Assembly (NCBI GenBank): GCA_050049995.1
Contig: JASFVE010000045.1
Coordinates: 1-15,477, forward strand
Length of the DNA: 15,477 bases
Direction of reading: 5' to 3'
From: Chlamydiota bacterium
GTDB taxonomy: Bacteria > Chlamydiota > Chlamydiia > Chlamydiales > SM23-39
Shown here: positions 1,620 through 3,698 of the stretch, in pieces
Position numbering within the stretch: the stretch's first letter is position 1
Layout of the letters: every line of letters begins with the position of its first letter
Made by a program: the position numbers and the translations under genes
The notes under the pieces: generated by a model
Database searches by the model: none
The model's input: the letters and a program-made list of their open reading frames with translations, nothing else
What the model was told of the DNA's origin: nothing

Positions 1620-3698
1620 ATGGCAGCAGCAGCCGTGGGGAATAATAGGCATATTCCGTTTGCACAACATCCAAATAACATTTCAGAAGTAATGGCTATC
1701 GCCCAATCAATTCAACAAATGGTAAGAAAAGCCCCTCCAGAGTTTTGGTCCTTGTCATTAAATGAGGAGTTGACTGAACACTATATTCAATGGAAAGGAA
1801 AGATGCTGGAAAGAAGTGTTTACCCAGTGTTTTCGGCTTTAGAAGATCATGAAAAAATAAAAACATTTTTATGTCCTCTGACTCTAGGATTTATTACTTA
1901 TCCTGTGCGAGATGCAAAGGGAATCTTTTTTGAAAAAAAAGATATTGAAAGGTATTTAGATAATTGTAAGGAAGAACATATTGAGGATTTTAGGACTCAT
2001 CCATTCAGAATGGGCATCCTTACTAAAAGCAACTTAAGACCTGCTCCCGAATATTATAGTGCCCTAATGGACAAATTAAAAGAGGTCTTAGCTGAAGAGC
2101 TTATAGGTGATGAAGGGCAAGGAAACCTTGAACCATCAATAAATGCTCAAAATGCCATTTTAGATCGTGCAATGAATCCCACTCAATTAATGGAACAATA
2201 TATAAAAGAGACTCCTCCTGAAGGTTGGTCTATTTCATCATTAATGAAAATATTAGAGGGGGCAAGAGATACTTTGGCTCAAAAATTGCAGGGGACTCTT
2301 GAAGAACAAAAAAATGTGGCTAGTATGATTATAGAGCCAAGTGAAAGATATTATTTTCTTCATGACATTGCCTTATTGTATATCGAGCTCAAGGACATAG
2401 GAAATGCAAAAGCAATGCTTAGCTCAGCAGTAGAAGCTGCTACATCAATTTCTGATAAGGTTAAAAAATGCCATGCTCTTAAAGTTTTAGCCGGGACTTA
2501 TAGTAAAATTGAAGAAAATGAACTTGCTGTCAACCTATTGATGGAAGCCTCTAATACTGATGACTGGGCTGCTTCTCAAGATATTAATAAGGAAATTGTT
2601 AGACTTTTTATTAAACTTGGAAAGTTAGATGAAGCTGAAAAAATAGTCCAAAAAATATCTCGACCACTTTATAGATGTCAAGCTCTCCTCAAAATTTCAG
2701 CAGCTTATATTGCAGTAAAAAATGATTTCTTTAAGAGGACGCTAGAAGAGGCCGAAATGTTAGCGCGTGGGCTCGGATCCTCTATTAGTAATGGTGGGGA
2801 ACTACATCTTTGGAATGAAATCATATGTACTTATCTTATGCTTAATGATTTGAACGGGGCAAAGGAAATAGCTAAAGAGTTTTATGAAGACAAAGTTTTA
2901 TATCAAATTATCAAATGCTGCATAAAAGTAAAAAAATTAGATCTTGCTGCATGGCTTATATATCAACTTCCTGAAGTAGACAGCTTTATTTTAGAAAAAC
3001 TTGCTGAAGCTTACACCGAACTTGGAGATCTGGTTAACACTCAAAAAATCTTAAAAAAGCTAGAAGAGATGGCAGAACAAACTCAAGGGCTACATAAAAG
3101 TTCGATTCTTGAGAGAATTGTTACAGGGTACATTAAAATCAATCAACTAGATGAGGCAAAAAGAATAGCAAATCAAATAGAATCAGAGGAGCCTAAGCGT
3201 TCTTCATTCCAGAAGATTTCTTTAGCGTATCTTGAGCTAGAAAGCGCAGATGTTATTCATATTAATGAAGCAGGAAAAAATGCTAGAGGCCTCTTTTTTT
3301 ATAAAAAGGTTGCGGCTCTCAAAAAGGCTGCTTTAGCTTATATTAGACTTAATCGCATGGATGATGCGCAAAACATATTACGAGAATTAGAAGAAGATGC
3401 CGAAAAATTAACTATTGAGGAAATCCCGCCTAATCTTCGTCAGTATTTTAAAGTACAAAAATTGAAAACTGACCTTTCCAAGGAAATTGTTTCCTTGCAC
3501 CTTGCGTTTAAGAATTTTGATAGAGCCATCGAAGTGGCAGATTCAATTCCTGATGTAAAAATTAAATCTATTGCGCTTAAAGAAATCATAGATTCTATGC
3601 TTATTTCTATTTTAAAAATTGATGAGTCCTTAAGAGCTAATAATGTTTTTGAAGAAGAAAGAAGGCTTGTTACTTTAAATGCCCTGAGAGAAAACTAA
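1620..3698 (+). CDS. U-box domain plus TPR-like repeat protein; candidate secreted E3 ubiquitin ligase effector
   Basis: 692 aa ORF with AGGA upstream of the ATG. Residues ~83-153 (FLCPLTLGFITYPVRDAKGIFFEKKDIERYL...THPFRMGILTKSNLRP) follow the U-box pattern F-x-CP-[IL]-[TS]...PV....G..[YF]E...I..[WY]L...T-x-P....L....L-x-P. Helical repeats run from ~aa 230 to the end. Confidence 0.75.
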   Translation: MAAAAVGNNRHIPFAQHPNNISEVMAIAQSIQQMVRKAPPEFWSLSLNEELTEHYIQWKGKMLERSVYPVFSALEDHEKIKTFLCPLTLGFITYPVRDAKGIFFEKKDIERYLDNCKEEHIEDFRTHPFRMGILTKSNLRPAPEYYSALMDKLKEVLAEELIGDEGQGNLEPSINAQNAILDRAMNPTQLMEQYIKETPPEGWSISSLMKILEGARDTLAQKLQGTLEEQKNVASMIIEPSERYYFLHDIALLYIELKDIGNAKAMLSSAVEAATSISDKVKKCHALKVLAGTYSKIEENELAVNLLMEASNTDDWAASQDINKEIVRLFIKLGKLDEAEKIVQKISRPLYRCQALLKISAAYIAVKNDFFKRTLEEAEMLARGLGSSISNGGELHLWNEIICTYLMLNDLNGAKEIAKEFYEDKVLYQIIKCCIKVKKLDLAAWLIYQLPEVDSFILEKLAEAYTELGDLVNTQKILKKLEEMAEQTQGLHKSSILERIVTGYIKINQLDEAKRIANQIESEEPKRSSFQKISLAYLELESADVIHINEAGKNARGLFFYKKVAALKKAALAYIRLNRMDDAQNILRELEEDAEKLTIEEIPPNLRQYFKVQKLKTDLSKEIVSLHLAFKNFDRAIEVADSIPDVKIKSIALKEIIDSMLISILKIDESLRANNVFEEERRLVTLNALREN

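Follow-up and report, generated by a model that had tools for sequence, protein, structure and literature searches.

The gene at positions 1620–3698 of the window (the window being the whole 15,477-nucleotide stretch of DNA that was analyzed, which is contig C45 of genome G000) encodes a protein, P0001, that joins a eukaryote-type U-box to a TPR-like solenoid and that, judged from its sequence and from structural models, is probably an active, host-directed E3 ubiquitin ligase of an environmental chlamydia. Comparison with related genes indicates that P0001 most likely arose recently, when a U-box gene encoding a hydrophobic hairpin lost that hairpin and was fused to a neighboring leader-bearing TPR gene. 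The main value of the locus lies in the parent family, the displaced arginine, and the visible recent fusion. The features discussed below are as follows.

2..1366, plus strand: upstream paralogous TPR gene, 3′ part; the 5′ part is found at the C26 contig end
1620..3698, plus strand: whole gene P0001, 692 aa, intact frame; leader, U-box, leader remnant, TPR-like solenoid
1620..1760, plus strand: N-terminal leader, candidate type III secretion signal, and short helix (aa 1–47), common to paralogues
1764..1847, plus strand: pre-U-box helix (aa 49–76), with the Y-x-x-W-K...V-Y-P motif that is the family signature; helical in the model
1866..2051, plus strand: U-box (aa 83–144), with E2-surface residues L87, Y112, and P128, the family Arg at 130, and Met131 at the linchpin position
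1959..1994, plus strand: variable insert (aa 114–125), DNCKEEHIEDFR
2049..2114, plus strand: post-U-box helix (aa 144–165; model helix 98–119)
2160..2237, plus strand: internal leader remnant (aa 181–206) that resembles aa 21–46; probable scar of fusion to a leader-bearing TPR gene
2298..3695, plus strand: TPR-like alpha-solenoid (about aa 227–692), presumed substrate-binding arm
3818..5893, plus strand: P0002, TPR-like paralogue downstream that lacks a U-box; it is older and has an orthologue in the sister species

A preliminary description, made from the sequence alone, had placed a U-box motif at 1866..2078, and the position is right: nucleotide 1866 begins the codon of F83, and the span corresponds to aa 83–153 of the reading frame 1620–3698. 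The Pfam search that it recommended matches the U-box model PF04564 at aa 83–144 with 23.3 bits when the whole protein is searched, 27.6 bits when the fragment is used, and 27 bits in the genome search, only 2–6 bits above the curated cut-off of 21.4, and no U-box match over the cut-off was found in 14 control genomes. A single U-box stretch is matched in P0001, with no second one, and NCBIfam gave no match over cut-off in the five proteins scanned. The full set of RING zinc ligands is missing, as had been noted; residues 75–150 hold only C85, C116, H77, H120, and H127, two Cys and three His, and therefore no RING ligand set.

In terms of fold, the best PDB match of the U-box as a single sequence is LubX (E = 1e-4), and a profile of 32 homologous modules extends this to LubX at 6e-23, plant U-boxes at 1e-12 to 4e-15, and E4B and CHIP at about 1e-11. 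The AlphaFold2 model of residues 47–172, built with 32 homologues (pLDDT 90.1, pTM 0.78), places a U-box core between two long helices. All 39 matches listed in a Foldseek search with this model are RING/U-box proteins or complexes containing them, none reaching E ≤ 0.001 (best 4e-3). Structural alignment with VIA-align ranks the Rad18 RING at the top (Z 8.5, rmsd 3.1, 81 aligned), followed by the CHIP U-box (Z 8.3 and 8.2; rmsd 3.0 and 73 aligned for the former) and U-box 1 of LubX (Z 8.1, rmsd 8.5, 106 aligned). The model and the fold searches give a U-box fold, so the lack of a predicted U-box or RING fold, one part of what would have refuted the preliminary description, does not apply. By score, predicted fold, and surface residues, the U-box of P0001 is a real eukaryote-type domain. 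In the ESM Atlas, the domain matches U-box clusters at 0.89 and a hairpin paralogue matches NleG at 0.77; both values lie below the threshold of 0.9 and serve as leads only.

The linchpin Arg or Lys of such domains is found three residues past the loop-2 proline, a count that agrees with Arg75 of LubX. In the gapless alignment of P0001 to E4B, the Arg aligned with M131 is the residue that we take to be the linchpin of E4B, and P0001 thus carries Met in place of the usual Arg and lacks a canonical Arg/Lys linchpin. The E2-binding surface is otherwise recognizable: L87, Y112, and P128 align with Ile39, Trp, and Pro of LubX and with E4B, a test of sequence only. Among the best 150 of the 442 family representatives described below, position 87 is Ile or Leu in 127, position 112 is Trp, His, or Tyr in 120, and the prolines of the same surface, P128 and P95, are kept in 123 and 146, respectively. 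The linchpin count covers 99 of 149 members, those with the standard Pro-to-Leu spacing, the other 50 having been dropped because indels make the register unsure; an Arg or Lys three residues past the proline occurs in 18 of the 99, and an Arg two residues past it in 61.

It is established that U-boxes, on binding E2~Ub, activate it allosterically (PMC13720258). The contacts named for U-box 1 of LubX in PMC9340081 are Ile39, Lys68, and Arg75; counting along the sequence, these correspond to L87, C116, and M131, only the first being kept. In the RNF38 substitution data reported in PMC12326332, Lys and Met come next after Arg in activity and most other residues support little, and by these data Met is among the better-tolerated linchpin residues. 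An Arg/Lys linchpin is common but not universal among active E3s. We infer that P0001 is an active but nonstandard or weaker E3, E2~Ub activation being probably nonstandard or weaker because the linchpin Arg is Met131 and the family Arg sits one residue earlier. Possibly R130, or a dimer partner, supports the donor ubiquitin.

W58 of the pre-U-box helix is kept in 136 of 150 family members. The acidic loop DNCKEEHIEDFR of the preliminary description does exist as a longer segment, an 8-residue insert relative to E4B that partly extends the central helix in the model, but its acidity does not hold up among homologues; these carry from none to about 25 extra residues that are not consistently acidic, and the insert is therefore not a diagnostic feature. 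The leader of P0001 is also found in three C26 genes, and its composition score as a secretion signal, a crude measure, falls at the 93rd percentile of 990 ORFs.

The C-terminal two thirds of P0001 match TPR_12, TPR_19, and TPR_14 over the Pfam cut-offs, and the designation as a repeat protein is thus borne out by a TPR-like solenoid that follows the U-box. A single-sequence model of this arm consists of helical hairpins with pLDDT mostly 50–88, and its Foldseek matches are TPR superhelices, e.g., LGN, OGT, and CTPR. The solenoid is presumed to be the substrate arm. In the single-sequence fold of the full protein, residues 1–225 have pLDDT <50, so this model is uninformative on domain arrangement.

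The genome holds six related U-box modules, three with a hairpin and three without. The hairpin-bearing paralogues (G000:C23:3531-4397, C10:14030-14965, and C10:15837-16874; C10, C23, and C26 are other contigs of the same genome), the probable ancestral form, are proteins of 288–346 aa in which the U-box is preceded by a hydrophobic, Gly-rich stretch and repeats are absent, and they suit a study of the family better than the window gene does. The hairpin-less modules belong to P0001 and to the C26 genes starting at 21718 and 23752, and in an alignment with the hairpin paralogues all three show a gap of about 57 columns following W43 (aa 43).

Word-based homologue searches are insensitive for this family, returning 1, 3, and 2 matches, whereas a HMMER search of 1.84 billion sequences with a profile of the six modules returned 442 representatives at E ≤ 0.001, of which 128 reach 1e-10. 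The typical member has about 300 residues and a Gly-rich hydrophobic hairpin upstream of the U-box. With the hairpin defined as a 40-residue window of hydropathy ≥0.8 with at least 5 Gly upstream of the U-box, 114 of the best 150 representatives have one, compared with a mean of 21 (maximum 25) in shuffled upstream regions and 24 of 512 similar-sized ORFs of the genome. Only three of the 150 continue for >400 aa past the U-box: P0001, the paralogue on C26, and P0059, which has a non-TPR tail. P0059, on a contig of 2.2 kb, begins as a hairpin-U-box protein and continues as a membrane-permease-like tail; it is possibly a chimeric assembly. Forty representatives scanned against the Pfam U-box model divide into 21 over the cut-off, 8 below it, and 11 without a match, which leaves the family under-annotated. 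A 60-sequence profile finds members in 39 of 400 genomes of the phylum at E ≤ 1e-12 (one further genome was not scored), and by our own row count both hairpin and U-box are covered in 26 of those 39, from six families.

At the second zinc site, 8 of the 150 members (P0067, P0068, P0073, P0086, P0088, P0108, P0123, and P0133) retain a C-P-x-C motif. Most of these also have a His or a Cys-x-His pair upstream, and an Arg, in one case an Asn, follows the motif directly. From their sequences, they are apparent half-RING intermediates between RING and U-box.

The hydrophobic hairpin is reminiscent of chlamydial Inc proteins, for which a bilobal hydrophobic domain of 40–60 aa is described (PMC3048545). 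The hairpins of the parent family are of moderate hydropathy, 1.5–2.3, and resemble this domain by hydropathy only, as far as the account in PMC3048545 goes; P0001 itself has no such domain, its maximal 19-residue hydropathy being 1.13 and its longest uncharged run 15. In chlamydiae, deubiquitinases are known to be fixed in the inclusion membrane (PMC13720258). The members of the parent family, which is little studied, are probably membrane-anchored ligases. No description of hairpin-U-box proteins or hairpin-anchored ligases was found in searches of the open-licence literature; subscription papers and supplements may mention members. We advance as a tentative proposal, possible rather than likely, that this is an as yet undescribed group, occurring in six or more chlamydial families, of Inc-like hairpin-anchored E3s of the inclusion or organelle membrane, ranging from half-RING to zinc-free U-box and activating E2~Ub through a shifted Arg, which at this locus was rewired from membrane targeting to TPR targeting by hairpin loss and fusion, with the unfused intermediates adjoining. 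With about 130 sequence clusters, a conserved E2 surface, and a displaced Arg, the family offers a direct test of an alternative geometry of E2~Ub activation.

The origin of the fused gene can be followed in its surroundings. The end of C26 and the start of the window share a 22-nt exact, in-frame overlap that is unique among the 122 contigs, and the two contigs are, from this overlap, probably adjacent. In the joined order, a U-box-TPR gene (C26), a U-box-only gene (166 aa), and a leader-TPR gene precede P0001, P0002, and nagZ. The first of these, G000:C26:21718-23745, has the architecture of P0001 and is 41% identical to it over 714 columns; the C26 paralogue protein gave no U-box match at E ≤ 1e-4. 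The two unfused neighbors, C26:23752 (U-box only) and C26:24398 (leader-TPR), have leaders that are 89% identical. Within P0001, a second copy of the leader (aa 181–206) sits exactly at the start of the repeats; it is identical to aa 21–46 at 9 of 26 positions (pairwise E 1e-6) and matches the leader of C26:24398, a TPR gene that stands alone, with 41% identity across 34 aa, and its placement is explained by fusion of a U-box-only and leader-TPR pair. The DNA of the first leader differs little between the two fused copies (1620–1760 compared with C26:21718 onward), with dS 0.19 vs 0.7–1.2 elsewhere, which points either to a recent gene conversion or to strong constraint.

In trees of the module, the three hairpin-less sequences form a clade (support 100/99 with 64 rows, 99/97 with 21 rows) inside the clade of the genus (97/99 and 100/98), whose other members and neighbors are mostly hairpin-bearing, and the C23 gene is its sister (99/87 and 93/84). 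Because the hairpin-less clade is nested among hairpin-bearing proteins, the loss of the hairpin is derived, provided that the tree is rooted outside the genus; another position of the clade within the genus is not rejected by the AU test (p 0.17). The sister species G001, whose genome is 91% complete, has one family member, in the hairpin form. At the syntenic site of G001 the U-box-TPR cluster is absent: on one contig, a phosphatase-like gene leads straight to the P0002 orthologue, and a TPR gene stands before nagZ. A word-based and hence insensitive search of a 5.8-billion-sequence set with aa 20–230 of P0001, among candidates of 380–1211 aa, recovered only two fused copies, both from the same genome. 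Together, the leader remnant, the adjoining unfused pair, and the absence from the sister syntenic site point to a recent fusion; fission of a fused gene is, in formal terms, still an alternative. The locus is a clear example of a new effector architecture assembled from neighboring genes. An assembly chimera was considered and is unlikely: the fusion is present in both of two diverged paralogues, and the gene is covered by run X1 contigs that show no difference from it, although X1 may be the source of the assembly and is then not an independent check. A 47.7-kb contig on record carries the identical P0001 sequence.

P0002 is 85% identical to its orthologue in the sister species, with dN/dS 0.23, and nagZ gives 0.14 between the species. 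Between the two fused copies, dN/dS is 0.45 for the U-box (63 codons) and 0.49 for the repeats (NG86, few codons), well above the nagZ value, and constraint on them is thus relaxed, with dN/dS <1 in all five segments and dS 0.7–1.2. Three chlamydial proteins of other families, L042:1-2058 (minus strand), L044:1000-3129 (plus strand), and L041, also have a canonical U-box followed by TPR-like repeats; L042 and L044 branch apart from P0001, so the combination of U-box and TPR arose more than once.

Other genes in and around the window were also inspected. P0002 (3818–5893), with its paralogues on C1, C3, C9, C24, C26, and C31 (L133–L139), forms a set of about 15 TPR-like genes. The heads of 11 aligned members share a P-x-E-I-x-x-x-I motif that by eye resembles helix 1 of an F-box, but an F-box identity was rejected for P0002 and the 10 paralogues, since none of the 11 heads matches a Pfam F-box and profiles give no F-box structure; the family may consist of degenerate SCF adaptors. 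Upstream of the cluster, the genes G000:C26:20026-21555 and L140:6802-8285 look by eye like a protein with the class D beta-lactamase fold and a histidine phosphatase; the histidine phosphatase-like gene is inverted between the two species. A promoter scan gave 6 sites vs 9.0 expected. At 11332–11356, upstream of hrcA-grpE-dnaK, lies a CIRCE-like inverted repeat that is ordinary, with matches in 5 of 200 shuffles and 3 mismatches to what we take as the CIRCE consensus. The minus-strand gene at 11415–14498 encodes a 1027-residue NAD-glutamate dehydrogenase-like protein with a long N-terminal region that has no Pfam match at E ≤ 1e-4.

The genome containing the window has 1.88 Mb, 34.9% GC, and is 98% complete; a possible source run is a wetland metagenome. 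Among 80 DnaK matches listed, 8 are 75–81% identical (6 from chlamydiae, 1 from a "bacterium," and 1 from "Verrucomicrobiae") and the remainder 59–68%. The genome has one match to the type III export-gate family FHIPEP (E 3e-227; the sole component of the system searched for), four ATP/ADP translocase (TLC) matches, and 31 F-box-like matches at E ≤ 0.1, 10 of them over cut-off. On DnaK affinity, the export gate, the translocases, and the F-box matches, the organism can be placed among the environmental chlamydiae and has a eukaryotic host. Two markers of anaerobic chlamydiae, [FeFe]-hydrogenase and pyruvate:ferredoxin oxidoreductase, were not found in the 98%-complete genome. U-boxes are present in 36 of 103 genomes of the family to which the organism belongs, this genome included.

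In the mechanism that we favor, the N-terminal leader would have P0001 delivered into the eukaryotic host by type III secretion, where the U-box would bind host E2~ubiquitin via L87, Y112, and P128 and the TPR solenoid would keep a host protein or another effector within reach for ubiquitination. Hairpin loss and fusion would then have changed targeting from membrane position to protein recognition. Secretion is suggested by the organism, by the precedent of the NEX and PEX proteins as described in PMC4209131, and by the crude leader score. The earlier proposal of a host-targeted E3 with a repeat arm accordingly fits the U-box fold, the TPR arm, the E2-surface residues, and the genome context, and it is weakened by the Met at the linchpin and by the retention of only one of three LubX U-box-1 contacts.

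The same weak points bear on a different reading. A U-box fold can be without E3 activity and serve as a substrate-binding module, as in U-box 2 of LubX, and P0001 might likewise be secreted and bind an E2 or other partner without ubiquitin transfer, as an E2 decoy, a substrate-binding module, or an adaptor. We regard this as unlikely, but as an alternative to be taken seriously: a linchpin Arg/Lys is found in only 18 of the 99 members counted, the position being Met in P0001, the equivalents of Lys68 and Arg75 of LubX are missing, and the 8-residue insert adjoins the E2 surface. On the other hand, P0001 keeps P128 and the aromatic helix residue, which U-box 2 of LubX lacks or alters; the Arg two residues past the proline in 61 of 99 members suggests a conserved basic contact; and RING E3s with a non-Arg linchpin, e.g., XIAP, are active.

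That the fusion is a young, weakly selected product of birth and death, with little or no function yet and heading to loss, strikes us as rather improbable. Both fused copies are intact at 675–692 aa despite dS of 0.7–1.2, and dN/dS stays <1 in all five segments, even though only two fused proteins were found, both in this genome (5.8-billion set), the cluster is absent from the sister species, dN/dS is near 0.5, and drift is argued for such families in PMC4209131. A still more remote reading, which we judge very improbable, is that the domain is an SP-RING-like module ligating SUMO or another ubiquitin-like protein instead of ubiquitin. It draws on weak zf-Nse matches in P0001 (12.8–16.3 bits), zf-Nse matches over cut-off in 3 of 40 relatives scanned, and NSE2 among the profile and fold matches; P0001 nevertheless remains far under the zf-Nse cut-off of 27, has no SP-RING zinc ligands, and scores higher as a U-box, and a Simkania protein found by SP-RING profiles is described as a degenerate ordinary RING (PMC12591485).

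With active ubiquitin ligation as the preferred reading, P0001 can be compared with known systems; from its sequence, it would work like NEX1b, LubX, and CHIP but is a member of none, its repeats being TPR rather than LRR, its U-box single, and its domain order reversed. CHIP consists of three N-terminal TPRs and a C-terminal U-box and is a homodimer that binds the tails of Hsp70 and Hsp90. The parallel drawn earlier with CHIP stands in that U-box and TPR share one chain in reverse order, P0001 having about 460 aa of repeats vs three TPRs in CHIP/STUB1; it is resemblance only, with a separate origin, because the U-box of P0001 descends from the chlamydial hairpin-U-box family. LubX, a Dot/Icm type IV substrate, is the best PDB sequence match, keeps the Ile39 equivalent in common with P0001, and has long helices flanking the U-box; it differs in having two U-boxes vs one, whereas P0001 has a TPR arm and lacks equivalents of Lys68 and Arg75.

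Effectors with a U-box plus repeats are described in environmental chlamydiae (PMC4209131), and P0001 is in this respect of an expected and already known kind. Neochlamydia NEX1b (RING/U-box and LRR) and NEX2 (F-box and TPR) are likewise proteins of an environmental chlamydia with an N-terminal ubiquitination domain and C-terminal repeats, from families with tandem, lineage-specific expansion and a leader expected to be a type III signal, as described in PMC4209131. NEX1b shares the N-terminal RING/U-box with P0001 but ends in LRRs, and it is likened to P0001 by architecture, since the repeats of P0001 are TPR-like and all-helical, with no LRR match at E ≤ 1. NEX2 has an N-terminal F-box, a central DUF294, and C-terminal TPRs, of which P0001 shares the TPRs only, with no F-box or DUF294 match. 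In the account given in PMC4209131, the NEX families further differ in OTU domains, which P0001 lacks, and in numbering dozens, compared with six U-box paralogues here.

NleG/StoD, GobX, RavN, and AvrPtoB are bacterial U-box-fold effectors that hijack host E2s, GobX being membrane-targeted, and their description in section 14 of PMC13720258 includes no hydrophobic hairpin or TPR arm. P0001 has no match to the NleG family PF06416 at E ≤ 1. Simkania SneRING is a chlamydial RING-type ligase, as P0001 is predicted to be; it is active and partly membrane-associated, and unlike P0001 it coordinates two zinc ions and ends in an alpha/beta domain (PMC12591485). SNE_A19470, a half-RING found by SP-RING profiles according to the same source, is like the 8 of 150 C-P-x-C relatives and may belong to the hairpin-U-box family.
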